The position numbers and the translations under genes were made by a program. The notes under the pieces were generated by a model, which saw only the letters and a program-made list of their open reading frames with translations, was not told where the DNA came from and did not search any database. Below are positions 37,661 through 60,288 of a DNA stretch of 64,000 nucleotides, in pieces (the stretch's first letter is position 1; each line of letters starts with the position of its first letter). The stretch is from Minisyncoccota bacterium (GTDB lineage: Bacteria; Patescibacteriota; Minisyncoccia; Phycocordibacterales; Phycocordibacteraceae): the NCBI GenBank assembly GCA_041663025.1, contig JBAZRE010000002.1, forward strand, positions 27,703 through 91,702, read 5' to 3'.

Positions 37661-37674
37661 AGGAGTATTATACA

Positions 37675-39159
37675 ATGACCATGAACATAGGACGGAACGA
37701 AAAATGCCCATGTGGAAGTGGTTTGAAATATAAAAAATGCCATATGGGAAAAGAACAAGATATGGGTAAAAATACCAAAAGATATCGTCATTTTTCGGGC
37801 GTTGTTTTCGATGGCTCTGGAGCCAATCTTTCGCTCTACGAAAAAAATATGACTTTGGTCGAAGCGATCATCGATATCTTTGGATTTACGGAAGGGCGAG
37901 ATTTAAGTGATATCAAGAGAACAGTCTCTCGCGAGCATGTAGCGGAATTGCATAAATTGGTGGCATGGCTTTGGCCACCTGATACGGACGTGACGAAATT
38001 TCTACCAGCCCCATCCAATAATTTGAGAGCACTCTATATGGGAAATATGCGGCCTCAAACAATTTTGAGAAGTGTCGGGAGATATTCGTTGTACTGCGAC
38101 GAAATACTGGTAATGGATCCTTTCATGAATCCATGGTTCATAGCACCTGACTACAATCCCATAATGCACCCAGAGGAGTACGTCTCTAATACATGGAAAT
38201 GGGTGTTATTTATTATCCAACTTGCACCATGGATATACGATAAACAGGTATTGTTGCTTCCAAACCCTCTCGACTTCGACTCGTCGTTGCGGAAAGAAAT
38301 GTGGGCTAGTGCGGAGAAACGATTAAATCCACAAAAGAACGATTTGCTGAAATTCCTCGAACAAGACGATTCCATGGGAGAAACTGCAAAAGAGGAATTT
38401 AAACGAACATGGATGTCTATTCCTGAATATGCACAACGAAAGAAAATAAAAGAGTTTGACAATAAAATGACGGAAGAAGAGGTCGATGGAATGATTAAGT
38501 ATATAGACAAAATGAAGGAAGAAGATCCTTACTTCGTGACAAATCCAAACGAAAAAGGAGGATTTGGTATCAGCACCCATACAATGGGCGGGAACTTGGA
38601 GCAGGGTTTATATATTTCTCAGCTAACCGGAGCTCATTTATACACAGATTTTGAATTTAGGTGGAGAGAGATTTTATCAGCTCAAACAGATACATCAGAA
38701 AAAAGCCCATGGAGTCCCATTGCGTATGGCTTCCAAAATCTCGATTTCAAATTTTTGGACGGCACAGATTTGAAATTCGTCCATAAAATAAAAGCAGACG
38801 GAAGATTGTCTAATTTGCGGAATTTCCTCCGAAAGACATGGAAAGAAGTATCAGCAGACGAGACACCAAATTATGAGAAGGCAAACAAACTTGCTTTGGA
38901 ATTTGCAGACGAACTGAAGGAACAGTATTCAAAAGCAGAGTCTGAATGGGAAGGTATAGACACAGATTTAACAAAATGGCTCTTGAGTAGAAGTGGGCTC
39001 GGGACCCTCGTTGCTACTGGAGGTGTAAATTGGACGATCCCCGCACTCGGCTTTGCAATGGAAGGCGTAAATCAGCTACTTACAGCACGGCATGAACGAA
39101 AGAATTTCAGGAAAAATGTACCACTTTCGGTCTTTGTTGATTTAAAAAAGAGAAAGTAA
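37675..39159 (+). CDS. SEC-C-motif protein of unknown function (494 aa)
   Basis: N-terminal CPCGSGLKYKKCH is a SEC-C zinc-binding motif. The rest has no recognised family. AT-rich gene, divergent from the recombinase with overlapping starts. Confidence 0.55.
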   Translation: MTMNIGRNEKCPCGSGLKYKKCHMGKEQDMGKNTKRYRHFSGVVFDGSGANLSLYEKNMTLVEAIIDIFGFTEGRDLSDIKRTVSREHVAELHKLVAWLWPPDTDVTKFLPAPSNNLRALYMGNMRPQTILRSVGRYSLYCDEILVMDPFMNPWFIAPDYNPIMHPEEYVSNTWKWVLFIIQLAPWIYDKQVLLLPNPLDFDSSLRKEMWASAEKRLNPQKNDLLKFLEQDDSMGETAKEEFKRTWMSIPEYAQRKKIKEFDNKMTEEEVDGMIKYIDKMKEEDPYFVTNPNEKGGFGISTHTMGGNLEQGLYISQLTGAHLYTDFEFRWREILSAQTDTSEKSPWSPIAYGFQNLDFKFLDGTDLKFVHKIKADGRLSNLRNFLRKTWKEVSADETPNYEKANKLALEFADELKEQYSKAESEWEGIDTDLTKWLLSRSGLGTLVATGGVNWTIPALGFAMEGVNQLLTARHERKNFRKNVPLSVFVDLKKRK

Positions 39160-39189
39160 AGGGAGCTTTGCTGATTAGAACTTTTCAGC

Positions 39190-39227
39190 GAAGGGGCTGG
39201 TGCGCGCACGGGTGGGAGGGGCAAGCA
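39190..39227. repeat. direct repeat DR1 (gaagggNctNNtgcgcgcacgggtgggagGGGCAAGCA)
   Basis: Matches 45423-45492 (DR2) apart from a 26-bp hairpin insertion in DR2. Confidence 0.6.
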
Positions 39228-39244
39228 CACTACGGGCGAGTTTG

Positions 39245-39554
39245 TGTTGTATTACCCCCTCCAAAAACTCTTCGGCTTCTGAATTTTGAACCTGCATTGC
39301 AAGTCAGAGAAATCCCTTCTCCACCATACGCGGCGCTCTGCGCCGCGCGGGAAAATTTTTCAGAATCTGACCCAAGTTTTATTCGGGCTACATTATACGA
39401 CCAAGTCCGAACTTTTTTCCAGCGCGCCCAATGATTACTCGCCCGCTCGCAGACTCGCGGGCTCGCCGCCGCGGACGGCGGCCCCTCGCTCCTGCCGCTC
39501 TCTATGCTTTGTTTTTTGGCGGGGGATGTCTTTGGAAAAGGAATGGAGCGGCAG
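39245..39554. repeat. internal inverted att-like block X'Y (reverse complement of Y'+X)
   Basis: 39245-39388 is the reverse complement of X, and 39387-39554 is the exact reverse complement of 45953-46120. The junction shares only AGC with both outer sites. Confidence 0.75.
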
Positions 39555-39611
39555 GGCGAGGGTCGATTTTGGGTAAATAGCCCTATTGCCCCTTATGTTA
39601 TTATTTCTTAT

Positions 39612-40451
39612 ATGCCCACGACGAACATAATTCGCGCTCTAGTAAACCTCGCGACAGCGAGAAATTTTGATCTCCCGGATGGTCCACAAGGGGCAAACCG
39701 AATTACAACCGTGGGTGCTCCGTTGGAATGCTTCATCAGAGATGCTTTTTGTAATTCCGCGCAAATTACGGATTTGCGCGAAAAAGAAACCGCCCATCGG
39801 GAGCATTTGTCATATCTCGGAAATTCAAAAAATCCGCCGGATTTTGTCATAAGAGCGGGCGATGCCGTAGAAGTTAAGAAAATCGAAAATCCGCTGTCAG
39901 GAATCGCGCTCAATAGTTCTTATCCTAAAGACCATATATACGTCGACGACCCGATGCTCTCCGCGGGATGCCGAGACTGTGAAGAAGGATGGCAACAGAA
40001 GGATTTAATTTATGCCATTGGAGTGGTTTCTGAAAATACAATCCAGTCCCTGCTATTCGTTTATGGAGATTGTTATGCAGCTAATCGCGAAGTATACGAA
40101 AGAATAAAGCAAAGAATTATCGCTGGGGTTGCACAATCGGAAGAAGTTGAATTCTCGGACACGAACGAACTTGCAAGGGTCAATCAAGTTGACCCGTTAG
40201 GCATTACTTATTTGCGAGTGCGAGGAATGTGGGGAATAGAAAATCCGCGCCGCGTTTTTGCTGACCTTAATTTCAATTCAAGAGAAGGTAGACCACTTGT
40301 TGCAACAATAATGCTCAGGTCAAAGTTTGAAAGTTTTCCTACCGAGGATAGGAATGCTCTAGCACAAGCTGCGGATAGGATTGAAGACATACAGATACGA
40401 AACCCTAACAACCCGGCACAGATGCTTGATGCAAAACTCATCGTCTTATGA
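39612..40451 (+). CDS. putative Type II restriction endonuclease (PD-(D/E)xK)
   Basis: NPPDFVIRAGDAVEVKK is a PD..x10..EVK catalytic motif. Overlaps the downstream C5-MTase by 4 nt. Start trimmed to ATG 39612. Confidence 0.55.
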   Translation: MPTTNIIRALVNLATARNFDLPDGPQGANRITTVGAPLECFIRDAFCNSAQITDLREKETAHREHLSYLGNSKNPPDFVIRAGDAVEVKKIENPLSGIALNSSYPKDHIYVDDPMLSAGCRDCEEGWQQKDLIYAIGVVSENTIQSLLFVYGDCYAANREVYERIKQRIIAGVAQSEEVEFSDTNELARVNQVDPLGITYLRVRGMWGIENPRRVFADLNFNSREGRPLVATIMLRSKFESFPTEDRNALAQAADRIEDIQIRNPNNPAQMLDAKLIVL

Positions 40452-41497
40452 AAATCATTTCTCTTTTTACTGGTGCTGGCGGACTTGATCTTGGGTTCAA
40501 GAAAGCTGGTTTTGACATTGTATGGGCAAATGAATACGACCCGGTAATTTGGGATACTTTTGAATCAAATTTCCCAGAGACGATACTAGATCGGAGAAGC
40601 ATAACTGACATACCTGCATCTGATGTTCCTGACGCATTTGGAATGATAGGCGGACCCCCGTGTCAGAGTTGGAGCGAAGCTGGAGCTGGTCGTGGAATTA
40701 ATGACAAGCGAGGTCAATTATTCTTTGAATACATCCGCCTCATTAAAGAAAAGCAACCGCTATTTTTTCTAGCCGAAAATGTTTCAGGCATTCTTTTTCC
40801 GCAACATGAAAAAGCATTTAGTACGATACTCAAGCAATTTAGCGATGTTGGCTACAATGTTAAATATCAACTATTGAATGCCAATGACTACGAGGTTCCT
40901 CAAGACCGCTTGCGCGTTATCGTAATCGGATATAGAAAAGACCTCGGTATTAGTTTTGAATTTCCAGAACCGCAACCCAAACGCCTTACTTTGCGCGATG
41001 CAATTTTTGATCTCCGCAACGCAAAACAAGCAAAAGAATTCAACAAGACAAACGGCGATGCACTTGAAATTCCAAATCACGAATATATGAATGGCGGTTT
41101 TTCAACGATTTATATGTCACGCAACCGAGTTCGTTCATGGGACGAACCGTCTTTCACTATTCAAGCCGGCGGTCGTCATGCTCCAATCCATCCGCAAGCG
41201 CCAAAAATGAAGTTCGTCTCGCAAAATGTGAGAATATTCGTTCCGGGTAAAGAAAAACTCTATCGCCGTTTATCAGTTCGCGAATGTGCACGGATACAAA
41301 CATTTCCTGACAACTTCATTTTCAAGTATAGAGATGTCGCAGACGGCTACAAGATGATAGGCAATGCAGTACCGGTCGAATTTGCTCATCACATTGGCAA
41401 AAAGATATATGCGGACCTTATTGCTGTAGGCAAGGTTCCTAGTCCTTACGACAAATTGTTCAAGGACAAGAAAACTCAAAATGTTCATCTACAATGA
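40448..41497 (+). CDS. dcm: DNA (cytosine-5)-methyltransferase
   Basis: Motif I FTGAGGLDLGF, motif IV GGPPCQSWS, motif VI ENV, and C-terminal GN(A/S)VPV-like motif. Confidence 0.9.
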   Translation: MKIISLFTGAGGLDLGFKKAGFDIVWANEYDPVIWDTFESNFPETILDRRSITDIPASDVPDAFGMIGGPPCQSWSEAGAGRGINDKRGQLFFEYIRLIKEKQPLFFLAENVSGILFPQHEKAFSTILKQFSDVGYNVKYQLLNANDYEVPQDRLRVIVIGYRKDLGISFEFPEPQPKRLTLRDAIFDLRNAKQAKEFNKTNGDALEIPNHEYMNGGFSTIYMSRNRVRSWDEPSFTIQAGGRHAPIHPQAPKMKFVSQNVRIFVPGKEKLYRRLSVRECARIQTFPDNFIFKYRDVADGYKMIGNAVPVEFAHHIGKKIYADLIAVGKVPSPYDKLFKDKKTQNVHLQ

Positions 41498-41527
41498 GAG
41501 AAAAACTAGTCTAATTAACTAGACCAT

Positions 41528-43162
41528 ATGTATATATCACACGCGAAAATTTCTAATTTCAGGGCTCTACAAGAGGTAGATGTTCCTCTTAATAAATGCT
41601 CGATTCTACTCGGAGAAAATGATGTGGGGAAAACATCTTTTCTCTTGGCACTTGACCGATTTTTTGCAAACAAGAAGATTTCAGACGAGGAAGATTTCTT
41701 TAATCGGGATACTTCGGCGGATATAACTTTAACGCTTACTTTCTCTGATTTACCTACAGACCCAACACTAGATTCAATTCAAAAAGCAGACGGGACGATT
41801 ACAGTTCGAAAAACCTTTTCATTTAATGAGACACCCGATACCAAAGCAATTATGGACGATTCTTCCACAAAGGCTGTGGACAAGTCGATTCTAAACGACT
41901 TACTATCAAGCGACGCGTTCCACTTCATTCCCGTGCGCAGAGATCTCAGTGTTCAATTTTCGATGACAAAAACTTCACTTCTAGGGAAAACTTTACGGGT
42001 ACGAATGCACGAAGCAATTAAAAATAATGACGCCGACCAATCTTTAGGGAAAGTTGAACAATTGCTTGTCGAAGCGATTAAGGGACCGCAGGAAGAATTA
42101 CAGGCTTTTTTAAGAGAGCAAATGCACAACGAAGACATGCGTCTCGTTTTCGACGCGCTAAATGTTGACCCAATAGAGGGGGTTTCGTTTAAAGTGAAAC
42201 TGGGCGATGACAAGATTGAAGATATTCTTGTGGAAAATCGCGGTGCCGGAACACAAAACAACCTAATAATCGCCTTATTCAGGCTCGTTGCTGGTCTTCA
42301 TGTTGAAGGAAAACTAATCTTTGCTATGGAAGAGCCAGAGAACAGTCTTCATCCTAAAGCACAAAGGCAACTATTTTCAGTACTCCAAGAAGTCAGCGAA
42401 AAATCTCAAGTCATTATTACTACTCACTCGCCAGTCTTTCTAGAAAGGAGCAGTTTTGAAAATAACATTATCCTTACCCGAACGGCAAAAGGAAATACTG
42501 TGGCTAAAGTATTTGACCATACACAACTAGAGGAGCTTAGAACAGATTTGGGTATCCGTCCTTCTGATGCTCTCCTTAAGGGTGGAGGTAATTGCGCAAT
42601 TCTTGTAGAAGGCAATACTGAGGAGGAGGCATATCCAATCTTTATGGAAATGCTTGGTCTAAGCGAATTCAAGCTGGGAATTGCGATAGTTAATATGCGC
42701 GGTAGCGATACTTCATTGGTTAGTAACACTGCTCGATTGCTAGGAGCATATGATATCCCGTGTGTGGTAGTACTAGATCAAGATGCCAAAGCAACTGCTG
42801 ATGATATCGTACGCGAAAGTAATGCTGGTCTTAAAAATGTTAAGAAAGTCTTTTGCTTAACCCAAGGAACAATGGAGGACTACTATCCTTTAGATATAGT
42901 GGCTGAAGTTATCAATCAAAGTTTTAATCCGACTCAGGCAGTAGTAGTTGCTGATTTTGATGATTCAAAACACGGTGCGGATAGGCTTAGTGACTTTAAG
43001 AAAGTTATGTACGAGAAAGGATTGGGTAAATCGCTAGGATACCTCAAAAGATTAATAGGTTCGAACGGTACTAAAATTATGAAAGAGAAAGGATTACCCG
43101 TGCCCGAAGAACTGGCGGGAGTGTTTGCAGAGGTAGTCAAGATTGTAAATGAAGGAGTTTAG
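41528..43162 (+). CDS. OLD-family / PARIS-like ATP-dependent nuclease (ABC-type ATPase + TOPRIM)
   Basis: Walker A GENDVGKTS, Walker B/D-loop VIITTHSP after EPENSLHP, C-terminal TOPRIM (ILVEGNTEE..VVVLDQDAKA). AT-rich. Confidence 0.7.
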   Translation: MYISHAKISNFRALQEVDVPLNKCSILLGENDVGKTSFLLALDRFFANKKISDEEDFFNRDTSADITLTLTFSDLPTDPTLDSIQKADGTITVRKTFSFNETPDTKAIMDDSSTKAVDKSILNDLLSSDAFHFIPVRRDLSVQFSMTKTSLLGKTLRVRMHEAIKNNDADQSLGKVEQLLVEAIKGPQEELQAFLREQMHNEDMRLVFDALNVDPIEGVSFKVKLGDDKIEDILVENRGAGTQNNLIIALFRLVAGLHVEGKLIFAMEEPENSLHPKAQRQLFSVLQEVSEKSQVIITTHSPVFLERSSFENNIILTRTAKGNTVAKVFDHTQLEELRTDLGIRPSDALLKGGGNCAILVEGNTEEEAYPIFMEMLGLSEFKLGIAIVNMRGSDTSLVSNTARLLGAYDIPCVVVLDQDAKATADDIVRESNAGLKNVKKVFCLTQGTMEDYYPLDIVAEVINQSFNPTQAVVVADFDDSKHGADRLSDFKKVMYEKGLGKSLGYLKRLIGSNGTKIMKEKGLPVPEELAGVFAEVVKIVNEGV

Positions 43163-45338: not shown

Positions 45339-45410
45339 GCCCTCGTAAGCTAACGGATAAACTGCCTCGATTCTAGCGAGGACTTGGGAGTTCGAATCTT
45401 CCCGAGGGCG
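45339..45410 (+). tRNA. tRNA-Arg (anticodon TCT)
   Basis: Acceptor GCCCTCG/CGAGGGC, anticodon stem CCTCG/CGAGG with loop ATTCTAG, T-loop GTTCGAATC. No encoded CCA. Lies inside the island. Confidence 0.8.
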
Positions 45411-45952
45411 CAGATATTTCTTGAAGGGAGTCTTCGCATGCGCGCACGGGTGGGAGAAGTCCGCGCGTAATCGCGCGGACTTGGGGCAAGCATTTGCATT
45501 TGCCTCGGGGCTGTTTCCGCTATGAGCGTCCATGGCGAAGGACGAGCGCCGACCCTCATCGAAGCATCAGGGTTTCGAAGCGGAAGCGACAAGATAAACA
45601 CAAAAATGAAAACGAGGAGAGGGGTTGTGCGATGGGCGGAATCCGAAGGAACGAGGATGAGCCCGAGCTGGGGAGAGGATTCCTTCCTCTCCCCAAACAA
45701 GAGCCGCCCCGAGCTCCGCTCAGCAGAGCGGAGTGCGAGGATAAGGCGGCACAAACGAATCTAGGCGCTCGTAGCCATAGCGGAAACAGCCCCGAGGCGG
45801 ATGCCGAGGGGTGGATTGCCTTTGCCAATGGACGACAACTACAGAGCGGAGAAAACAGCTCGAGACCACAGGAAATTTGCATTTGGGCTGAACGGCTCAT
45901 TTCTTCCCATGTGAGCCGTTAGGCGGGAAGAAGTGAGCCGTTCCCCGAGCCA
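45411..45952. other. about 540-bp GC-rich non-coding region with multiple inverted repeats (candidate structured RNA or cis-acting site)
   Basis: Only short, mutually overlapping Arg/Gly-rich ORFs. Inverted repeats include ctcggggctgtttccgctatg (45472) versus catagcggaaacagccccgag (45775), ggggagagg-attcctt-cctctcccc, and gcatttgcatttgcc versus ggaaatttgcatttggg. Confidence 0.45.
45423..45492. repeat. direct repeat DR2 with inserted hairpin (aagtccgcgcgtaatcgcgcggactt)
   Basis: Direct match to DR1 at 39190-39227, starting 13 bp after tRNA-Arg. Confidence 0.6.
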
Positions 45953-46120
45953 CTGCCGCTCCATTCCTTTTCCAAAGACATCCCCCGCCAAAAAACAAAG
46001 CATAGAGAGCGGCAGGAGCGAGGGGCCGCCGTCCGCGGCGGCGAGCCCGCGAGTCTGCGAGCGGGCGAGTAATCATTGGGCGCGCTGGAAAAAAGTTCGG
46101 ACTTGGTCGTATAATGTAGC
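45953..46120. repeat. island repeat Y' (attR arm), exact reverse complement of 39387-39554
   Basis: 168/168 identity. Followed immediately by the ASCH-gene leader (putative B' flank). Confidence 0.8.
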
Positions 46121-46129
46121 TAATTATTT

Positions 46130-47285: not shown

Positions 47286-48074
47286 CTAGATAGTAACCGT
47301 CTGGCCGAGGGCGCCAAGTAGATAGTTCGCGAGAAGTGCTGTGGCGCTTGAAGAATGTCCGATCCCGCCAAATGCAGCGGTAGCGTCTGTGCCGCAGAGT
47401 GACACGATCGCCTGCACACCGCCGGGATGATATGGAACATAGGCAGTAATGTTATACACATTGCTGCCAATAGTTAACCAACAACTATTCTGAGTGTTGT
47501 GCGTCGCGATAACGGCTGACGTTAAGGTGACCTGATTTGTTGTTGACAGTGGTGCGGTAGTAAACGATGTTTGGCTTGAGGTAGCCGAGCCGTTTGCAGC
47601 GCTTACCGATGCGACAACCACATAATACGTGGTGCTTGCGGTAAGACCGGTAAGGCCGATCGAATGGCTCTTCACTGGCGTTGCGCTGGTCACTGACGAA
47701 GCAGCGAGCAAGCTCAGTGGCGAGGTTGTGCCGAAGTACACCTTGCTTGAAGAGGTTACATTCGTCGTCCAGCTAACGAGAGCGCTTGAGGTGCTCACGT
47801 TGGTAATAGCGAGTCCTCGCAGAGCGAGAGTAGTGGCTGGAGTTGTCGTTGATGTTCGATGCTCACCTCTCCCCTCGTCATCGTCCTGATCGCCCTTTTC
47901 GCCGCGTTCTCTCACATGAGTATGCGCGAACGCGGACTTCCCGTGTATCTTCGGGTGACGGTCTCCATTTTTATTGTTCAAGTGTTCTCCACCATCCGCT
48001 AAAACGAATGCTGGAGAGAGGAGTAGTGCCGCAAAGAGGACGAGGCTGGATATTTTTTTGGTAAATGTTGTCAT
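47286..48074 (-). CDS. secreted protein with His/Asp-rich region, Ig/FN3-like beta domain and C-terminal cytochrome b5-like heme-binding domain
   Basis: Signal peptide. C-terminal CWLTIGSNVYNITAYVPYHPGG..GTDATAAFGGIGHS carries the b5 HPGG heme-ligand motif and a second His. Confidence 0.55.
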   Translation of the reverse strand: MTTFTKKISSLVLFAALLLSPAFVLADGGEHLNNKNGDRHPKIHGKSAFAHTHVRERGEKGDQDDDEGRGEHRTSTTTPATTLALRGLAITNVSTSSALVSWTTNVTSSSKVYFGTTSPLSLLAASSVTSATPVKSHSIGLTGLTASTTYYVVVASVSAANGSATSSQTSFTTAPLSTTNQVTLTSAVIATHNTQNSCWLTIGSNVYNITAYVPYHPGGVQAIVSLCGTDATAAFGGIGHSSSATALLANYLLGALGQTVTI

Positions 48075-48223
48075 AATGATTGTCGTATATTACGCGGTTA
48101 ATTTAGGCCTAAGGTTGCGCAGAGTGCGCCACTTCTTATATACTTGACCTCTCACTCATAAGGGAGACGGTAGTGCTCGGGTATCCTTACCGTAAGAATG
48201 TGTGCCATGATGCGTCTCAAGAT

Positions 48224-48760
48224 ATGGAACAAGATATTTCAAAAAACCAATTCATTCAGCTCTACACCAATGAATCTGATGCGATATACAGATTCTGCCT
48301 TTTGAGGACATCTGATAAGGATGTGGCGGTTGATCTGATGCAAGACACTTTTATGCGATTCTGGAATGTTCTTTCGCAGGGTGAGAAGAAAGTTGAGAAC
48401 AAACGAGCGTTTCTCTTCACCGTCGCGCGAAATAGTATCATTGATTGGTACCGGAAGAAGAAAACACTCTCGCTCGATGCGTTGGCAGAAGGGTCAGAAA
48501 CAGACGCCGAAACATTTATGCCAGTCGGTCAAAAGAAGGAGGACATAGAAATGACGCATGAGGCCAAATTTCTTCTGGAGAGAATAAGAGAACTCGATCC
48601 GCTCTACCAACAAGTCGTGTATCTCAGATTCGTCGAAGGTCTCGGGCCTAAAGATATCGCAGAAATTATCGGGGAGTCAGCGAACGTCGTGTCAGTGCGT
48701 ATCAATCGGGGATTACAGCAATTACGGAAAGTGGCGGGGTATGATGAAGAACAACCATAA
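48224..48760 (+). CDS. ECF-type RNA polymerase sigma-70 factor
   Basis: Region 2 (LMQDTFMRFW..RNSIIDWYRKK) and region 4 HTH (GPKDIAEIIGESANVVSVRINRGLQQLR). Confidence 0.8.
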   Translation: MEQDISKNQFIQLYTNESDAIYRFCLLRTSDKDVAVDLMQDTFMRFWNVLSQGEKKVENKRAFLFTVARNSIIDWYRKKKTLSLDALAEGSETDAETFMPVGQKKEDIEMTHEAKFLLERIRELDPLYQQVVYLRFVEGLGPKDIAEIIGESANVVSVRINRGLQQLRKVAGYDEEQP

Positions 48761-49544
48761 AAATATGAAAAATGATTTAAATAAAGGGGCGCAAGAAATA
48801 CGAGATATAAAACTTTCTCCAGAAGAGAAGAAGGTTGTTCTCTCGCGTTTGCTCGCGCATATGGATGAACATCCTGTTCGGTTTGTGGTGAGTCCGTATC
48901 AACACTTCTTTCATTCTCGTTTTGCCTATGCGCTTGCGGGAGCTCTCCTCATGTTCTCTGTAACCAGCGGTGGTGTCGCATTGGCCTCTGAAGGGGCGTT
49001 GCCAGGAGACCTGCTCTACCCGGTCAAGATCTATGTGACCGAGCCGGTGCGTGGAGCGTTAATAATCGGGACGGTGCAGAAGGCGCAATGGGTTGAAGAG
49101 AAGACTGTTCGTAGATTTGATGAGGCAGAATCTCTCGCGACACAAGGACGTTTGAGCACCACTACTATCCAAACCATCAAGGAGAATGTTGAGAAAAATA
49201 CAAATGAATTTCACGCCATCGTTCAGGCTTCTGAAGCACAGGCATCTTCAACGGAGATGGAGCGGGTGCATACTGATTTTGAAAAAGAGATAGAGTCTCG
49301 CGCGCAGATTTTGAATATCGCTACCAGCACACCTCGCGTTCGGTCGGAGGAGAGTACGCGAGAAAACGCTCGTACGGCGACAAGTACTTCGAGAGGCACG
49401 AGAGAAAGAGAAGAAGAGGATTCTGAAAATTCTAACGATCGGTATCAGGCTCTGCCGGCATCGGTTATACGAGCGACTGAGACACGACAAGCGACCAGTA
49501 CCAAGAGGGTGCGAGAGTCTGACTCAAGAGGAGAGAGAGATTAA
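48741..49544 (+). CDS. putative anti-sigma factor (DUF5667-like, single TM)
   Basis: Overlaps the sigma gene by 20 nt. One TM, and the extracytoplasmic LPGDLLYPVK motif is characteristic of DUF5667 proteins paired with ECF sigmas. Low-complexity acidic/Arg-rich tail. Confidence 0.5.
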   Translation: MMKNNHKNMKNDLNKGAQEIRDIKLSPEEKKVVLSRLLAHMDEHPVRFVVSPYQHFFHSRFAYALAGALLMFSVTSGGVALASEGALPGDLLYPVKIYVTEPVRGALIIGTVQKAQWVEEKTVRRFDEAESLATQGRLSTTTIQTIKENVEKNTNEFHAIVQASEAQASSTEMERVHTDFEKEIESRAQILNIATSTPRVRSEESTRENARTATSTSRGTREREEEDSENSNDRYQALPASVIRATETRQATSTKRVRESDSRGERD

Positions 49545-50601: not shown

Positions 50602-52155
50602 CTACGCAAAGCCGGGGAAGTAGTCGGTCTTAATGTGGCGGCGGGAGATGCCCATAGCGCGAAGTGTCTTACGCGATGCCTCAACCATGACGGGCGGCCC
50701 TGAGATATAAAAGGTGCGCTCTATGTAGTCAGGAATTTGTTCAGCGATCAACTTTTCATCAATTCTTCCCGCATGAGCCCACGGGAGTGGTTTCGGCTCG
50801 CGAGTTAGTGCATATATCGTTTTCATACCAATTTTCTTCGCGGCTTCGTTGAAGGTCTCAATATAGGCGATTTCTGATGCGGTGCGGTTTGAGTAGAGGA
50901 GCATCACCTCGCGCGTATCATTGGTATCTATCAAATGGCGCACCATGCTGACAAAAGGCGTGATACCAATACCGCCAGCGACAAAGACGAGTTTCTTTTT
51001 TGGATTCTTCGGAAGGACGAAGTCTCCGGCGAGTTGTGAGACCGAGAGTGTATCGCCCGCGCCCATTGCAGCGAGCGCACGTTTAAAACTGCTCTCAGGC
51101 TCATAGAACTTCACGCCCAAACGCACGACTTTTTCAGCGGGCGATGAGGCGATCGTGAAGTAGCGGCGATTGCCGCGATCGTCGGAGAAGCGGTGTGGCA
51201 ATGTCCACTCCAGATACTGTCCTGGGCGGAAGTTGAAGAGCCAGTCGGGCTTGAATACAAATTCATAAAGGCCATCGGCGAGCTCTCTTTTATCAATGAG
51301 CTTTAAGGTGAAACGTCCTTCAGGGCTCACAAAATAGACAAAGAGATTGCCTACCAGAAGTGCGAGCTCTGGTGTGAAATAGAACGAGCCGAGGTGAATG
51401 TTGGGGGCAAAAAGGAATCCAACGATTGCGCCGTAGAAGATCCTCCCGAGACGCGTGGGTGACATGGTCAGCGGCTCGGTGAGCATCACCAGTGCGAGGA
51501 AGAAGAATGGCGAATGCAAGAACGTCTGTGTGATCGGCGTTAAATAATTGCTACTTGTCGATGTAGCGACAATAGTCGCGAGTGCCACAATCGAAAATGA
51601 CCATACCAGATCGAATCGCTGGATCTTACGAGCAATCAATAATCCGCCGATCACTACGAAGGCCATGAGTGGCAGATTCCCGCCGACCCACCACGTCGCT
51701 CCTTGGTTAAGCGCAAGTGCCGAGAACGCGATGCCAAACGCTGCCGGATTGAAAATATGTTTCTTATGGATAGCCAAGATAAACTTAGAGGCCATTGCCC
51801 ACGCCGATGCGAAAATAAGGAATCCTATGCCGGCATAATCGGTGTATGCGACAGGAGAGATGATGAGCGCGAGAATGAGTGCCGTGATATAAACCGATTC
51901 AACATTTGTCGCTGCGTTGAAGCTTTTTGCAAATACCGTATTGACGAGCCAACACACCGCGAGAATAAGGAGTGTCGAGAGGGCGAGATTAGCAGGATTG
52001 ATAGGGAGCCAACCAAGGGTGCCGAAGAGTGCTGCTAAGATAAACAATACGACGAGATAGTACAGCACGAGGCGATACATCGTGATCTTATTAAGGAAGT
52101 TGTCGATAAAGGCGGGCATACTATTAGTTTTTTGCCTGTGTGAGCGCCGATGCAA
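50602..52155 (-). CDS. polytopic membrane domain fused to FNR-type FAD/NAD(P)-binding oxidoreductase
   Basis: About 280-aa multi-TM N-terminus. C-terminus has FNR motifs (RRYFTIAS FAD-binding RxYS-like, GGIGITP NAD-binding, C-terminal YISGPP). Confidence 0.65.
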   Translation of the reverse strand: MHRRSHRQKTNSMPAFIDNFLNKITMYRLVLYYLVVLFILAALFGTLGWLPINPANLALSTLLILAVCWLVNTVFAKSFNAATNVESVYITALILALIISPVAYTDYAGIGFLIFASAWAMASKFILAIHKKHIFNPAAFGIAFSALALNQGATWWVGGNLPLMAFVVIGGLLIARKIQRFDLVWSFSIVALATIVATSTSSNYLTPITQTFLHSPFFFLALVMLTEPLTMSPTRLGRIFYGAIVGFLFAPNIHLGSFYFTPELALLVGNLFVYFVSPEGRFTLKLIDKRELADGLYEFVFKPDWLFNFRPGQYLEWTLPHRFSDDRGNRRYFTIASSPAEKVVRLGVKFYEPESSFKRALAAMGAGDTLSVSQLAGDFVLPKNPKKKLVFVAGGIGITPFVSMVRHLIDTNDTREVMLLYSNRTASEIAYIETFNEAAKKIGMKTIYALTREPKPLPWAHAGRIDEKLIAEQIPDYIERTFYISGPPVMVEASRKTLRAMGISRRHIKTDYFPGFA

Positions 52156-52648
52156 GAGATTGTTGGAATGCTTCGCTCGTAAAGGTTGCGCCAGACGCAG
52201 TATCTACTCGTGCATTTTGAGCAACGATGGCTTCTCGTATCAAGATCGGCATCGCATAATTATTTACGGCGACTGAGGTGCTTCGGTCACTCGGGTGCTG
52301 CAAGAATTTCACATCAGCGATCTTTCCGTTTTGGATAATCGCTTGGACCTGCACGGTGCCGTAGTAGGCGTCAGCAGGAGTGCCTACGTAGGTACCATCT
52401 CGGTAAAGGCCAAGTGGCTTTGGTGATTGGGTGGTAGTTGTTGCTGTTTGCGTCGGGACATTTTGTGCGGCAATGGGTTGCGTTGTATTTGAAGTAATCG
52501 GTGCTGTTACTACCACAGATTGTTGTTCACCGCCAAGAAACTGCCACAAGGTATAGGTGGCTGAGACAATACCAATCACAATCGCAAGGGGAAGCTTGCC
52601 GCTCGAGATTCGTTGAGGAGGCATATTGATAGTATATACGCAATACAC
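52124..52648 (-). CDS. FMN-binding-domain protein (flavinylation substrate)
   Basis: N-terminal anchor. FMN_bind domain with ApbE target motif DTASGAT. Overlaps the downstream FNR gene (operon). Confidence 0.65.
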   Translation of the reverse strand: MYCVYTINMPPQRISSGKLPLAIVIGIVSATYTLWQFLGGEQQSVVVTAPITSNTTQPIAAQNVPTQTATTTTQSPKPLGLYRDGTYVGTPADAYYGTVQVQAIIQNGKIADVKFLQHPSDRSTSVAVNNYAMPILIREAIVAQNARVDTASGATFTSEAFQQSLASALTQAKN

Positions 52649-52685
52649 ACGGGATTATTACGCCTAGGCTGATGTAAGAATCTAG

Positions 52686-53384
52686 ATGTATCTCCGTCTC
52701 CCCTCACATACCATGAAAAAGATGATTGCCGTGGCAGTATTTCTTGTATCCTCGACCGCATTTGTCTTTGCGCGACAGTCTGCGGTGGCGACAGCGGCGC
52801 AGAGTGTTCAAGATGTCCCTGAGAGTATGGCGAACATAAACGAGAATGATGCGACCACTTCAGACATGCTCGCCTCTCAGATACAAGCACTTGAGGCGAA
52901 TATCTCGCAAATAGAAAGTGCAAATATTGAAGCGGCATCTGTCTTGAGCCAAGTCGTGACAGCGGTATCGAAACCAAAACCGCAAGTTTCTCCGACAGTG
53001 CGGATTACACCAGTCGCAATGCCGACCTCTACACCTATCGTGACACGGGTGCCGACAACAACTCCTGCCGCGATCGTCGTCTACGGTCAATCGACCTATA
53101 ACAGCGGCAATGGTGTGCTCTTATATGCCAACGGGACTCCAGTTACCGCTCCGGATGGTGCGCGGCAAAGTTCAAATGGGTATTGGTATCTTGGTGGGCA
53201 GATCTATGCGATTGGTCCAGAAATCGGGATTCCATACACACCAGAGACAAACATCGTGTATGAGCAAGCCCCTATTATTACTCCTACTATCGTTGCTTCC
53301 GTGACGCCATCACCAGCACCAGTTCTCGTATCAACAAGCACTTCGCGTTCACGCACGCGTCACGAAGAGCGTGATGATGATTAA
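52686..53384 (+). CDS. secreted hypothetical protein (coiled-coil + Pro/Thr-rich)
   Basis: Signal peptide. Shares N-terminal coiled-coil architecture with the next gene. No recognised domain. Confidence 0.4.
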   Translation: MYLRLPSHTMKKMIAVAVFLVSSTAFVFARQSAVATAAQSVQDVPESMANINENDATTSDMLASQIQALEANISQIESANIEAASVLSQVVTAVSKPKPQVSPTVRITPVAMPTSTPIVTRVPTTTPAAIVVYGQSTYNSGNGVLLYANGTPVTAPDGARQSSNGYWYLGGQIYAIGPEIGIPYTPETNIVYEQAPIITPTIVASVTPSPAPVLVSTSTSRSRTRHEERDDD

Positions 53385-53386
53385 GT

Positions 53387-54199
53387 ATGAAGAAGATATT
53401 TTTACCAATTGTTTTTATCGGCGTTTCTTTTTTATATATGTTCTCGCGCAGTCCTGCGGCAGTGCTCGCGGGACTCTCCGATAGTTCCAACACAAGTGCA
53501 GGGACTGACATCACCATCCCCACCACGGTAAGCAGTACAACAACAAGTCTCGCGAGTAGCACTGAATCGCTTTCTGTGCAGCTAGCGATGCTTCAGGAGC
53601 GTCTTGCAAAACTGGAGAGTGCTAAAAAATCAGCACCGCAAACACGCATTGTTGTTATTCCAGCGGCGCCAGTTCCAGAATCATTCCCAGCGCCAGATTC
53701 CCCAGTTCAAGAGCCCGTTGTCTCGATACCGATGACCCTAGAACCAACACCGACACCAGCAGCACCCACTCTGGTTCCAGTGGTTGTTATTCCTCCGCCA
53801 CCATTCACCACACTTCCTCAGACTCCTCTTCCAGCGCCAATACTCCCGTCGACAACGCCTGCGCTAGCATCAACGCCAACACCTCCTCCCGCTCCCACAC
53901 CTCCGCCTGTGCCGGCCGGCCCTAAAGATGGCACCTATACGGGGAGTGTCGCTCAAGCTGGAAGTCGTGGCCCTGTCCAAGTACAGGTGGTGATTGCAGG
54001 AGGAAAAATCACCAACATCAGCTTCCTCTCTTCTCCAACCGCATCTCCGGTCTCAGTTTCTATCTTTGACACAGCGTCACCGACGCTCGTGCAAGAAGCT
54101 ATTGCAGCGCAGAGTGCGAACGTGACAACCGTTTCAGGAGCTACGCTTACCAGTAATGCATTTAAACAATCACTTGCGTCGGCGCTCGCGCAGGCGTGA
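53387..54199 (+). CDS. FMN-binding-domain protein with long Pro/Thr-rich linker
   Basis: Signal/anchor, coiled-coil, roughly 90-aa P/T-rich spacer, then FMN_bind domain with TTVSGAT flavinylation motif. Confidence 0.65.
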   Translation: MKKIFLPIVFIGVSFLYMFSRSPAAVLAGLSDSSNTSAGTDITIPTTVSSTTTSLASSTESLSVQLAMLQERLAKLESAKKSAPQTRIVVIPAAPVPESFPAPDSPVQEPVVSIPMTLEPTPTPAAPTLVPVVVIPPPPFTTLPQTPLPAPILPSTTPALASTPTPPPAPTPPPVPAGPKDGTYTGSVAQAGSRGPVQVQVVIAGGKITNISFLSSPTASPVSVSIFDTASPTLVQEAIAAQSANVTTVSGATLTSNAFKQSLASALAQA

Positions 54200-54214
54200 A
54201 GAGGGATGTAGCAT

Positions 54215-54997
54215 ATGATCATCATGAGGATCAGAGACGTGCGGCTTATCATGGGCATGCCCATAGAAATTGAGATTGTAGATGACAGCGCGAGAGACAC
54301 ACTCGAATCCGCCTTCGCATATCTCGTGTCTGTCGATGAACGTTTCAGTACGTATAAAGAAGACAGTGAAATTTCGCGTATCAATCGCAGTGAGATTGAA
54401 TCAGATGTCGTGAGTGTCGAGATGCGGGAAGTTTTTGCCATCGCTGAGAAGACAAGAATAGAAACAAACGGATACTTTAATATCAAAAAACCTGATAGCA
54501 CTATTGATCCTTCAGGTATTGTGAAGGGATGGGCGATACGCAATGCTGCCGCGCTTATCCGCGAAGCGGGATATGAGCATTATTTTGTGAATGCCGGTGG
54601 CGACATTGCGACGAGTGGTAAAAATATCGATGGAGGTGAGTGGAGTGTTGGTATCCGCAATCCCTTCAACAGTAATGAAATTGTGAAAGTGGTCTATCCA
54701 CACGGGAAGGGTATCGCAACCTCTGGTTCATATATCCGGGGGAATCATATCTACAATCCCCACAATACAAAAGAAGAGTTGCATGACATCGTGAGCATCA
54801 CGGTCATAGGCCCTGATGTTCTTGAAGCCGATCGTTTTGCGACTGCAGCGTTTGCAATGGGAAAGGGCGGCATCACTTTTATTGCACAACTATCGGGTTT
54901 TGAAGGCTACGCCATAAATGTGGACGGTATTGCTACGATGACGAGCGGCTTCGCCGAATATACAAATCCGCAAGGTGACACCTTACGGCAACCGTAA
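54215..54997 (+). CDS. apbE: FAD:protein FMN transferase (ApbE family)
   Basis: ApbE core motifs (SEISRIN, GIVKGWA, VNAGGDI, GIATSGSY). The last 9 codons and the TAA stop are encoded by a family-1 palindromic element. Confidence 0.8.
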   Translation: MIIMRIRDVRLIMGMPIEIEIVDDSARDTLESAFAYLVSVDERFSTYKEDSEISRINRSEIESDVVSVEMREVFAIAEKTRIETNGYFNIKKPDSTIDPSGIVKGWAIRNAAALIREAGYEHYFVNAGGDIATSGKNIDGGEWSVGIRNPFNSNEIVKVVYPHGKGIATSGSYIRGNHIYNPHNTKEELHDIVSITVIGPDVLEADRFATAAFAMGKGGITFIAQLSGFEGYAINVDGIATMTSGFAEYTNPQGDTLRQP

Positions 54998-55011
54998 GGT
55001 GTCACCTTGCG
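54967..55011. repeat. two tandem inverted family-1 short palindromes (ccgcaaggtgacaccttacgg caa ccgtaaggtgtcaccttgcgg)
   Basis: The first copy encodes the apbE C-terminus PQGDTLRQP. The TAA of ccgTAAgg is the stop codon. Confidence 0.75.
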
Positions 55012-55265
55012 GAGTGCGCAGGGAGCCAGTTCATCACTACCTTGCGGTGTTGATCGAGCGACCATGAGTCACTGTGCTTGAAAAGCGTTGCATGTCCCTT
55101 TCTAAACTCTCGTAAGAGCGGTAATGAAGCACGGGGAAATTCAAAAGGGAGACCCTCGTTATAGGACTTTAAAAAGGCGGGAAGTGAGAGGAGTTTCTCG
55201 CTCCGTTCTCGATCGAGGTCAGGTGATCTCATTACCCCTGATAATACCACGAACTTTATACTAAA

Positions 55266-56693: not shown

Positions 56694-58154
56694 TTATGCA
56701 AATAGTAATCTGAATACCGTACCCTCATTTTCTTTTGATTCGAAAGAGATTCCAACATTAATTTTATCGGCTATCTTCTTTGTCATGTAGAGTCCCATGC
56801 CGCTACCATCCTTAATGAGAGACGTTACATTATCTCCTCTGAAATTACTTTTTAATATTTGAGATTGCTGCTTATCTGGTATTCCGTATCCAGAGTCTCT
56901 CACGATGATTGTCAGTGTTGGTTTCGCGATGGCCGTGATTTCAACATTACTGTTTGGCCGAGAATACTTGATGGCGTTGCTTAAGATATTTTCAAATACG
57001 ATACTCAGGAGTTGTTGATCAGATTTGATACAGGGAAGGATCATCCCCTCGACCCTGTTGGTGATCGAGACGTTTCTTTCTTTTGCAATTCGTTCGAGCT
57101 CCGTGATTGTCTCTTGGATGAGTACCGTGGGGTCAACACTCTCTTCTTTCACCTCCGCGATCCCGAGCTCAATTTTGGTCACGTTCAGAAGCGTGTCAAT
57201 GATTTTTTTCATCCGGAAGACCGCATGGCTGATGTCATCGGTATAGCGATGATACAGGGGAAAACTGGTTGAAAAAGATACATCAGTCTTCATCATGTCG
57301 GCGGAGAGAAGAATAACTGAGAGAGGGTTCTTGAGTTGATGTGAAGCGAGAGATAAGAATTCACTTTTTGCGATATTGAGATCGTTCAGATTTTTGAACA
57401 TAAGACGGTACGGCTCCATCATGTTGATTTCGATCAGGCCGGCATAGAGAAAGAAGAAGGTGATGATTTTGAATATGTGCCCGAGTAGATTGAACTCATC
57501 GGTTACGGCGAAGTAGAGCGTGAACATGAATTCAGAGATTATCGCTGATACGATAGCGAAGACGATATAGCGATATACCTCTCGATCAAGCCGATCCCTC
57601 TTCGTATAGAAGCCATAGAGTGCTCCACCCATCATGAGAATGATGACATATTCGCTGTAGATCTTAAACGACGTGAGCCCGCGACCTTCAATATAGGCAT
57701 CGGGGAAGAGGTGAAAAGTGAAGAAGAGGAGGAGGATAGCCGCGAGGATACCGATCATTCCGTAGAGGATGAACTCTTTCTTTTTTATTTTGTCAGCAAC
57801 AAAAGGGGCAGCGAGGAGTGCAATGCTGAAAAAGTAGCGACCAATAAGCCAGAGCTGCGTCGGCATATTGGCGGTTATGTTCTCAAATATAAAAACTCCT
57901 TTGAATGCGAATGTGTGAAGTGAATCGATGACCGCTAGAGGGAGCATCGCCATCGCGACAAAGAATAGGGTTTTGTTGTCGAGATAGTTTCGCGAATTCC
58001 ACGCCACGATGAAGATGGTAAAGGCGACCACGATGCTCAAGAGCTCGGCGAAGCTGTGGAAGAGGAGGTAATTATATAAATGGAGAGAATAGACCAGCGC
58101 TAGGATCAACAGCAACTGTAGATAGGTGCCATACGTTTTGAGGAAGCGGAACAT
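56694..58154 (-). CDS. sensor histidine kinase with large polytopic membrane sensor domain
   Basis: About 7 TM helices, then HisKA (LASHQLKNPLS) and HATPase_c (NAIKYS, DSGYGIP, GSGMGL). No adjacent response regulator. Confidence 0.8.
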   Translation of the reverse strand: MFRFLKTYGTYLQLLLILALVYSLHLYNYLLFHSFAELLSIVVAFTIFIVAWNSRNYLDNKTLFFVAMAMLPLAVIDSLHTFAFKGVFIFENITANMPTQLWLIGRYFFSIALLAAPFVADKIKKKEFILYGMIGILAAILLLFFTFHLFPDAYIEGRGLTSFKIYSEYVIILMMGGALYGFYTKRDRLDREVYRYIVFAIVSAIISEFMFTLYFAVTDEFNLLGHIFKIITFFFLYAGLIEINMMEPYRLMFKNLNDLNIAKSEFLSLASHQLKNPLSVILLSADMMKTDVSFSTSFPLYHRYTDDISHAVFRMKKIIDTLLNVTKIELGIAEVKEESVDPTVLIQETITELERIAKERNVSITNRVEGMILPCIKSDQQLLSIVFENILSNAIKYSRPNSNVEITAIAKPTLTIIVRDSGYGIPDKQQSQILKSNFRGDNVTSLIKDGSGMGLYMTKKIADKINVGISFESKENEGTVFRLLFA

Positions 58155-59865: not shown

Positions 59866-60288
59866 TCACTTATTCTGAAACGGTTGGCATTTCTGGCAGA
59901 GACAACCCTTCGGCTTGAGGTGCATATCGAAGTACTCGGTGTCATAGTCGTAGGTGAGTTCTTCACTTGCCTTGATGTTTTTCTTGGCGAAGACATAAAT
60001 TCTGCGATTTCGTATATCTATCTCACAGTTCGGCGCACAGGAGTGGTTGATAAAACGCGCTTTGTTTTCTTTAATGTTTCCGTTAATCATCGTACTGTCG
60101 CTCGTCCAGAAAAGGTATTTACCTCGATTCGCTTTTTGTTCAGCCGGAGTAGCCGGCCGCCCTGTATATTCAATAATGCATGCGCCTCTCGGTATAGCTT
60201 CTTCAGCGAACATGCCAAGGCCAGTGCGCGAACGCCCGACGCGAAGCGCATATGTTCCCGGTACAAACCTTCTACGAATCTTTTTCAT
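59866..60288 (-). CDS. SET-domain protein, paralog 2
   Basis: RFINHSCAPNC, ELTYDYD, post-SET CLCQKC. About 45% identical to the 14925-15326 product by eye. Confidence 0.7.
   Translation of the reverse strand: MKKIRRRFVPGTYALRVGRSRTGLGMFAEEAIPRGACIIEYTGRPATPAEQKANRGKYLFWTSDSTMINGNIKENKARFINHSCAPNCEIDIRNRRIYVFAKKNIKASEELTYDYDTEYFDMHLKPKGCLCQKCQPFQNK

Follow-up and report, generated by a model that had tools for sequence, protein, structure and literature searches.

A predicted Nqr/Rnf-like electron-export module served by a leaderless ApbE in a Minisyncoccota bacterium

The DNA described here (the window) is a stretch of 64,000 nucleotides from a Minisyncoccota bacterium (contig JBAZRE010000002.1, positions 27,703 to 91,702), and all positions are counted from its first letter. 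Its subject is a cluster at 50602-54997 in which the open reading frame (ORF) list, Pfam and a reading of the sequence place five genes in two divergent operons. One operon encodes a membrane domain fused to an FNR-type reductase module together with a flavin mononucleotide (FMN)-binding protein, FMN_bind-A. The other encodes an orphan secreted protein, a second FMN-binding protein (FMN_bind-B) and the flavin transferase ApbE. The original prediction for this DNA had drawn attention to ApbE, the two FMN_bind proteins and the membrane-FNR protein; Pfam finds all the domains claimed for these four, and the fifth gene, at 52713-53384 on the plus strand, had not been mentioned. The features of the cluster are as follows.

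50602-52119, minus strand: fusion protein, 505 aa, NqrB/RnfD-like membrane domain plus FNR module
52124-52624, minus strand: FMN_bind-A, NqrC/RnfG-like subunit, about 166 aa, Pfam FMN_bind
52625-52712: intergenic region between the divergent operons, about 88 bp
52713-53384, plus strand: secreted orphan protein of 223 aa (from MKKMIAV), leading the divergent operon
53387-54199, plus strand: FMN_bind-B, 270 aa, Pfam FMN_bind
54215-54997, plus strand: ApbE-type FAD:protein FMN transferase, 260 aa (257 aa if the start is at 54224)
54967-55013: hairpin with a perfect 20-bp stem, from a terminator scan, between convergent genes

Gene starts needed some correction. The overlap reported earlier between the FMN_bind-A and fusion genes is an artefact of ORF calling, and the fusion gene begins at the ATG at 52119, 4 nt past the FMN_bind-A stop codon. 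A TTG start at 52155, which gives the longest ORF (517 aa), was rejected because the 505-aa form is an exact match to a called gene in another assembly and the homologues are 504-505 aa long. Exact-sequence look-ups with the 517-aa ORF and with the 260-aa ApbE found no match, as start codons differ. FMN_bind-A probably starts at the ATG at 52624, giving 166 aa from an annotated ORF of 52124-52648.

The fusion protein falls into two halves, an N-terminal polytopic NqrB/RnfD-like membrane domain of about 265 aa (nt 51325-52119) and a C-terminal FNR-type FAD/NAD(P)H-binding module of about 240 aa (nt 50602-51318). In the numbering of the longest ORF, NQR2_RnfD_RnfE (PF03116) matches residues 164-275 with 28.6 bits and NAD_binding_1 (PF00175) matches residues 391-495 with 61 bits. 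Compared with the Protein Data Bank (PDB), a profile of the membrane domain found RnfD (8ahx_D, E 6e-5) as its best solved-structure sequence match and Vibrio cholerae NqrB (7xk3_B, E 4e-4). Residues 60-129 align with NqrB 144-210 and residues 143-260 with NqrB 272-393 (also RnfD 221-329), and a TEP/TDP motif is common to the fusion membrane domain and NqrB/RnfD. The region matching NqrB 210-272, which contains the loop of Thr236 (the FMN acceptor position of NqrB), spans about 62 residues in NqrB and about 14 in the fusion protein. An A-[S/T]-W-W motif survives there, with Trp invariant and Ser/Thr in 56 of 70 homologues, and it stands without the upstream D-x-x-[ST]-G context.

The reductase half has the features of the FNR superfamily. 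The motifs RRYFTIAS, GGIGITP and Y-x-SGP (here YISGP) and a C-terminal aromatic residue, F501, are invariant or nearly so in 70 homologues of 39-75% identity; the R-x-Y-[ST] motif reads RRYFT here, with Phe in place of Tyr. The Pfam confirmation suggested in the original prediction held for NAD_binding_1 and failed for FAD_binding_6, which Pfam did not call on this protein. The fold is nevertheless borne out by NCBIfam and PDB alignments of the FAD/NAD(P) fold spanning residues ~265-505, among them many FNR-family reductases and NqrF, by an AlphaFold2 model of the full-length fusion (pLDDT 94.8, pTM 0.89), and by Foldseek, in which this half matches FNR-family and NqrF FAD domains with E-values down to 2.8e-18.

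FMN_bind-A has a C-terminal FMN-binding domain (Pfam FMN_bind, 37.3 bits) with the motif DTASGAT and the acceptor Thr147 (codon 52184-52186), preceded by a signal anchor (residues 13-31) that is flanked N-terminally by R5 and K10. FMN_bind-B (41 bits) is built from a signal peptide or anchor, a Ser/Thr-rich stretch, a short helix, a Pro-rich spacer and a C-terminal FMN_bind domain in which TTVSGAT places the acceptor at Thr253 (codon 54143-54145). Both motifs are legible in the sequence as had been noted before, and the Pro/Thr-rich spacer, put at roughly 90 aa, measures 98 aa (residues 83-180, nt 53633-53926; 35% Pro, 18% Thr plus Ser). The presence of a Thr or Ser acceptor had been left to be checked by alignment. 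In the related loci (87 searched, of which 84 non-redundant ones were analysed) the acceptor motif occurs in 82 of 82 FMN_bind matches, 56 of them with the full D-x-x-[ST]-[GAS]-A-[ST] and 26 with an SGAT-like form only, and in the 56 full-motif copies the acceptor lies 18-20 residues before the C-terminus. A variant FMN_bind protein of 246-268 aa, found in loci L004, L006, L007, L011, L021 and L028, has a conserved soluble N-terminal domain of about 45 aa (MTTPxLIAxxRxQLAxG...GWxxxDI), and it tends to accompany an ECF sigma factor gene 1.3-2.0 kb upstream.

The 223-aa orphan protein combines a signal peptide, a short helical segment, a Pro/Thr-rich stretch, a Gly/Tyr-rich C-terminal region of about 60 aa and a charged tail. 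It matched no Pfam family, and a search of 5.8 billion proteins returned only the protein itself. Its relatives are confined to loci L002/L003 (E 8e-31), which also have an orthologue of FMN_bind-B, and it was therefore rejected as a conserved component and is taken to be lineage-specific. Its N-terminal 129 aa weakly resemble the N-terminus of FMN_bind-B (26% identity, E 3e-4).

ApbE (PF02424, 144 bits) has the hallmarks of an FMN transferase. It keeps the motifs TSGSY (SGSY), NHIYNP (H-I-x-x-P) and EADRFAT (EAD-x-x-x-T) of the Escherichia coli enzyme, which we take to serve in FAD binding (S-G-S-Y), to supply the catalytic His (in H-x-x-[DN]-P) and to provide Mg2+ ligands (D...T). By alignment it lacks about 45 aa matching E. 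coli residues 105-151, and the ApbEs of the close clade are in general about 50 residues shorter than solved ApbEs. The AlphaFold2 model (pLDDT 88.8) superposes on solved ApbE, FmnB and Ftp structures with Foldseek TM-scores of 0.78-0.85 normalised to the query and 0.65-0.71 normalised to the target, the top match being Listeria FmnB; the fold core is covered and the catalytic motifs are intact. A database protein that is 100% identical (P0121) is named 'FAD:protein FMN transferase [Candidatus Paceibacterota bacterium]'.

These domains and their arrangement agree with a class described by Méheust et al. (2021 eLife, PMC8238504). That paper defines an 'NQR/RNF-like system' by an N-terminal PF03116 and a C-terminal PF00175 in one protein within a flavinylation-associated cluster, a cluster of this kind comprising genes no more than five away from ApbE or FMN_bind, at least one of which has a predicted signal peptide. 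Here PF03116 and PF00175 stand in that order in the fusion protein, FMN_bind-A adjoins it as an NqrC/RnfG-like partner with [S/T]GA[S/T], FMN_bind-B and ApbE lie two and three genes beyond FMN_bind-A, and signals are present. By its sequence features the cluster is thus assigned to the NQR/RNF-like flavinylation class, known since 2021 from bioinformatics. It shares with the class the domain architecture, the adjacent NqrC/RnfG-like subunit, the ApbE, the home in the candidate phyla radiation (CPR) and, in its relatives, the link to VIT1, and, apart from the residual A-[S/T]-W-W here, the canonical NqrB/RnfD flavinylation loop appears to be lost in both. Méheust et al. (PMC8238504) treat these systems as partial and unidirectional and report VIT1 in six clusters, and the system of their paper and of Huang et al. 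(2024 mSystems, PMC11334425) is reported mainly from Actinobacteria and the CPR. Huang et al. modelled a two-subunit complex from Ktedonobacter racemifer. In their AlphaFold-multimer model the FMN_bind subunit sits against the extracytosolic side, they find no conservation of the NqrB/RnfD flavinylation site, and the FMN of the NqrC/RnfG-like subunit is proposed to reach a flavin site in the membrane subunit (PMC11334425). A literature search for experimental studies of the system in Patescibacteria turned up nothing other than these two bioinformatic papers.

Databases contain more than 7,900 homologues of the fusion protein. The best 120 are 64-100% identical to it, and the named ones among them come from Paceibacteria, Minisyncoccia, Kaiserbacteria or the 'Patescibacteria group'. 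A search with the membrane domain gave 296 clusters at 50% identity (E <= 1e-30), and a scan of species-representative genomes gave 80 loci, about 20 of them in Alphaproteobacteria at 53-58% identity, several in cultured Mesorhizobium. Since the homologues are so many, the closest all of Patescibacteria type, and the loci number 80, the system is common in this lineage. The view that it is unexpected in a reduced genome is not sustained, the CPR being one of its two main homes.

Gene order is conserved well beyond the window. In at least 71 of the 84 loci the gene immediately upstream of the fusion gene, on the same strand, encodes an FMN_bind protein; at least 44 (27 CPR or other, 17 alphaproteobacterial) have an FMN_bind-ApbE-fusion operon, and 62 have ApbE within 10 kb. 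Three distant members, with about 38-39% membrane-domain identity, show the same operon. The window departs from this usual operon in having ApbE in a divergent operon with the Pro-tethered FMN_bind-B and the orphan, an arrangement that only its closest named relative (L002/L003, 75% identity) shares. Because a second FMN_bind gene is found in 3 of the 84 loci only, and the orphan only in that relative, the outer pair of orphan and FMN_bind-B is a recent, lineage-specific extension of a conserved core. Operons from cultured Mesorhizobium (L046, L050, L058, L062, L065, L073, L080 and L087) are 53-56% identical to the CPR ones, and the copy in Mesorhizobium sp. B2-1-1 (L087) sits at 188558-191659 of the 460-kb plasmid pB2-1-1. 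Judged by sequence identity, this likeness is closer than the distance between the phyla predicts and suggests horizontal transfer.

Topology was predicted by heuristics (hydropathy, the positive-inside rule and the helix order of the model). N-terminal hydrophobic signals were recognised on both FMN_bind proteins by a hydropathy heuristic and not by SignalP. Across the related loci the FMN_bind anchors would be oriented N-in/C-out, with more Lys and Arg on the N-terminal flank in 62 of 68 and the reverse in none, which would place the FMN_bind domains outside the membrane as the original prediction needed. In the fusion protein, helix order and the distribution of Lys and Arg put K119/K120 and R164/K165/R168 on the predicted cytoplasmic side, that of the FNR module, and would leave the A-T-W-W loop (residues 138-148) on the far side, the one that bears the FMN in NqrB.

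Taken together, domain identities, motifs, gene order, conservation and predicted folds make it probable that the cluster encodes a two-subunit Nqr/Rnf-like transmembrane electron-export module with its flavin transferase and a lineage-specific outer extension. Its cofactors, electron direction, topology, acceptor and flavinylation sites are predictions. Electrons from NAD(P)H would enter at the FAD of the fusion protein's cytoplasmic FNR module and then cross the membrane by way of a non-covalent flavin in the NqrB/RnfD-like domain. At the outer face they would pass to FMN held by a phosphoester bond to Thr147 of FMN_bind-A, and this FMN may sit in the vacated NqrB pocket. In this organism and its closest relative, FMN_bind-B (Thr253) on its 98-aa Pro-rich tether could relay them further to an external oxidant. 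ApbE would install both FMNs, from FAD. A path from NAD(P)H to the outside through a membrane-FNR protein, with a donor unlike that of Listeria, had been proposed in the original prediction; it matches the published hypothesis, and the domains, motifs, topology and synteny are consistent with this inferred function. What is added here to that published core is the tethered second flavoprotein, the ECF-sigma and metal-transporter context, the Mesorhizobium homologues and the leaderless ApbE. So far as the available text of the two papers extends, it does not cover an ApbE that is leaderless everywhere examined and compact in the clade, the recurrent ECF sigma factor or the close homologues in cultured Mesorhizobium.

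ApbE has no signal peptide, lipobox or hydrophobic segment in its sequence or hydropathy profile, and so lacks the lipoprotein or secretion signal of a canonical extracytosolic ApbE. The same is true of all 63 full-length orthologues from close loci (median 247 aa), whether they come from CPR or from diderm Mesorhizobium, and every one of the 63 begins M(K/R)ETRxxMGMP at residue 1; three ApbEs from distant loci (282-291 aa) are likewise leaderless, 3 of 3. A hidden signal read from an upstream start was rejected, as the ORFs are maximal, in-frame TGA and TAG codons lie upstream and the family N-terminus is conserved from residue 1. A read-through fusion of FMN_bind-B with ApbE was also rejected; the two genes share a frame but are separated by a TGA and then a TAG, and the ApbE ATG has a ribosome-binding site, GAGGG, in front of it. 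A secreted or anchored ApbE acting outside the cell, as implied by the original prediction, conflicts with the missing leader in ApbE and all its orthologues.

Canonical ApbEs are secreted lipoproteins working outside the membrane, and cytoplasmic ApbEs are known only with cytoplasmic substrates (PMC12052999). The Klebsiella pneumoniae cytoplasmic ApbE, which serves a soluble NADH:fumarate reductase, is likewise without a signal peptide (PMC12052999), whereas the substrates here are predicted to be signal-anchored or secreted and the enzyme is about 50 residues shorter than solved ApbEs. Neither Méheust et al. 2021 nor Huang et al. 2024, in the text available from each, comments on a leaderless ApbE facing outward substrates. 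There are three possible accounts: cytoplasmic flavinylation of the C-terminal tail ahead of Sec export, a non-classical export route for ApbE, or a cytoplasmic module, the last of these being disfavoured because of the topology evidence. Twin-arginine (Tat) export of a pre-flavinylated FMN_bind protein was rejected as a general route, with a twin-arginine-like motif in 1 of 78 N-termini. Our tentative proposal, held with less than even confidence, is that the system always relies on a leaderless ApbE of its own (in the CPR/Mesorhizobium clade a mini form, about 247 aa long), with FMN added in the cytoplasm to the tail, 17-20 residues from its end, before crossing, or else with ApbE leaving by an unrecognised exit route. 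If true, either course would mean a biogenesis of extracytosolic covalent flavoproteins unlike that of every characterised ApbE system, and where and how exported flavoproteins become flavinylated is the question that the leaderless ApbE poses.

Neighbouring genes offer some hints of regulation and role. They were clustered without prior assumptions within 6 kb in about 83 loci, and the recurrent families include histidine kinases (22 loci), ECF sigma factors (17), probable anti-sigma factors (12), a D-2-hydroxyacid dehydrogenase (14 CPR loci), PepSY (9 alphaproteobacterial loci) and cytochrome b561 (6), together with the metal-transporter families P-type ATPase with a His-rich N-terminus (10), Nramp (6) and VIT1 (5). 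The pB2-1-1 operon is divergent from cytochrome b and VIT-family genes, and PepSY and a two-component system also adjoin it. Such neighbours hint that the acceptor may be metal ions for uptake, Fe3+/Fe2+ and perhaps Mn or Cu; the metal-transporter context lends modest support to reductive metal acquisition and extends the VIT1 observation made by Méheust et al.. A general sink for the reducing equivalents of NAD(P)H is also possible.

Patescibacteria have no respiratory chains, and their redox balance and metal acquisition are poorly understood. A widespread, flavin-only module driven by NAD(P)H could be among the few routes by which they move electrons across the membrane, possibly in the service of iron or manganese uptake or of reductant disposal at the host-cell interface, and near-identical operons in cultured, genetically tractable Mesorhizobium make the system testable.

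Several observations weigh against the electron-export reading. PF03116 scores barely over its cut-off (28.6 against 27.7 bits), and the NCBIfam models score far under theirs, rnfD at 18.7 bits against 207 and nqrB at 16 against 349.9. A literature search found no biochemical characterisation of any family member, so that cofactors, direction and acceptor rest on homology. ApbE has no export signal in any locus examined, yet its substrates are predicted to lie outside the membrane, which could mean that the topology model is incomplete. Given the residual A-[S/T]-W-W, a covalent flavin on the membrane domain is still conceivable. The window has no metal transporter within 6 kb, and its L-lactate permease, with the 2-hydroxyacid dehydrogenase of 14 loci, would fit NAD+ regeneration equally well.

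One alternative puts all flavin parts in the cytoplasm, where the module would be a membrane-associated NAD(P)H oxidoreductase akin to the ApbE-dependent NADH:fumarate and NADH:acrylate reductases of the cytoplasm, its NqrB-like domain serving as an anchor or as a donor to a membrane-soluble acceptor. The 63 close and three distant ApbEs, diderm Mesorhizobium included, and the single Tat-like N-terminus among 78 are in its favour, as is the documented pairing of cytoplasmic ApbEs with cytoplasmic FMN_bind substrates (PMC12052999). We nonetheless think it unlikely: no FMN_bind anchor is reversed and 62 of 68 point N-in/C-out, FMN_bind-B and the orphan begin with classical signal peptides and contain the long Pro/Thr-rich linkers that are characteristic of surface proteins, the pocket of the shortened Thr236 loop would lie opposite the FNR face, and the published multimer model docks FMN_bind extracytosolically (PMC11334425). 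Much less probable is that the fusion protein belongs to an ion-pumping RNF or Na+-NQR whose other subunits lie elsewhere in the genome. Its homologues are annotated 'RnfABCDGE type electron transport complex subunit D' and the homology to RnfD/NqrB and RnfG/NqrC is detectable, the membrane domain corresponding to NqrB and FMN_bind-A to NqrC in the V. cholerae complex (PDB 7xk3, 8a1t), with the FNR module like the FAD/NADH domain of NqrF, and to RnfD and RnfG in RNF (PDB 8ahx). The predicted attachment of FMN to Thr by ApbE at S-G-A-T is also common to both it and Na+-NQR. Unlike Na+-NQR, the cluster is without NqrA, NqrD, NqrE and a 2Fe-2S domain, the donor module is fused to the NqrB-like domain, and the predicted path is one-way outward and not semicircular to quinone, with no sign of ion pumping; unlike RNF, it is without RnfA, RnfB, RnfC and RnfE and is not ferredoxin-linked. 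The original prediction had asked whether the membrane-FNR protein is a known NQR/RNF subunit, and the low rnfD and nqrB scores given above speak against this, as does the scan of window genes and of recurrent neighbours in about 83 loci, which found no RnfA/E/C/B or NqrA/D/E. The fused FNR would make NqrF or RnfC/B unnecessary, the loop with the conserved FMN-Thr is truncated, and the published view is of partial, unidirectional systems (PMC8238504).

A Listeria-type extracellular electron transfer (EET) pathway, from the quinone pool to a surface flavoprotein by way of Ndh2, demethylmenaquinone (DMK), EetA/B, PplA and FmnB, is the least probable of the readings. An ApbE-family transferase and a surface FMN_bind terminal carrier recall the FmnB and PplA of Listeria monocytogenes, FmnB is the top structural match of the ApbE model, and both systems share the notion of a fermentative cell getting rid of NADH electrons on its outside. 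PplA, however, has two FMN_bind domains and a lipobox, and the carriers here have a single FMN_bind domain and a signal anchor; the donor is a direct fusion of NAD(P)H-FNR with an NqrB-like domain in place of Ndh2 and quinone; and no Ndh2, EetA/EetB or DmkA-type gene was found among the window genes scanned or the recurrent neighbours. FmnB, moreover, is a lipoprotein (PMC12052999), in contrast to the leaderless ApbE. A sensor or signalling device, or reverse flow from an external reductant to NAD(P)+, tied to the ECF sigma pair or to histidine kinases, is improbable too. It would draw on the 20 of 84 loci that have an ECF sigma factor no more than 3 kb from the fusion gene, the histidine kinases near 22 and the MASE3 kinase syntenic in the window and L002. 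Adjoining regulators more simply regulate the operon, the sigma factor is absent from most loci and only one of the sigma-family matches comes from an alphaproteobacterial locus. FNR modules in such fusions normally oxidise NAD(P)H, and given flavin midpoint potentials an uphill reduction of NAD(P)+ is unlikely without energy coupling. Export of electrons from NAD(P)H stays the preferred reading, and its logic of a cytoplasmic FNR module with a fused polytopic domain is that of bacterial NOX (Streptococcus pneumoniae, PDB 8qq7), MsrQ-like-NAD_binding and ferric-reductase fusions. The NOX FNR module is among the sequence and fold matches of the fusion protein. NOX-type fusions have two b-type haems in a six-helix domain, in contrast to the NqrB/RnfD fold and presumably flavins only here.

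The 88 bp at 52625-52712 presumably hold the promoters of both divergent operons. A sigma-70 consensus scan gave fewer matches than shuffled sequence and no convincing site in this region, and is uninformative for this organism. At the other end of the plus-strand operon the hairpin at 54967-55013 spans the ApbE stop codon, its DNA coding for the final ApbE residues, and is probably a bidirectional terminator. Beyond the fusion operon's 3' end lie two genes identified by Pfam.

48173-48760, plus strand: ECF sigma factor
48741-49544, plus strand: DUF5667 anti-sigma factor

They converge on the fusion operon, with a YceG gene between, and are candidate regulators of the cluster. Elsewhere an ECF sigma gene close to the fusion gene often precedes it by 1.3-1.5 kb on the same strand, the two being separated by a gene of about 236 aa. 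Further neighbours in the window are an SdpI-like protein, a NUDIX protein, a MASE3 histidine kinase (56694-58154, minus strand, syntenic with the cluster in L002 too) and the L-lactate permease.

The permease, the ECF sigma and DUF5667 pair and a secreted cytochrome b5 protein had been listed as lying nearby, and Pfam identifies them all. The last of these (47286-48074, minus strand) joins an fn3/purple-acid-phosphatase-N domain to a cytochrome b5 haem-binding domain and is divergent from the ECF sigma pair; for a CPR genome, a b5 domain outside the cytoplasm is unusual. As a linked component it did not hold up, a homologue being found within 10 kb in 0 of 86 other loci searched; it is not supported as a conserved acceptor and is left out of the system because it is near none of the other loci.

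Some features of the window lie apart from the cluster. A bacterial SET-domain protein is encoded at 59866-60288 on the minus strand. Past tRNA-Arg(tct) (45339-45411), a region of about 700 nt (45412-46129) has only short, mutually overlapping ORFs and no Rfam match, and could be non-coding or the remains of a gene. An island of low GC content (0.41-0.45, compared with about 0.50 elsewhere) at 36020-43162, beside tRNA-Gln (36106-36180), encodes a large serine recombinase, a SEC-C-motif protein, an NgoPII-type restriction endonuclease with a C5 cytosine methylase, and an OLD-family AAA/TOPRIM nuclease, and looks like an integrated mobile or defence island.

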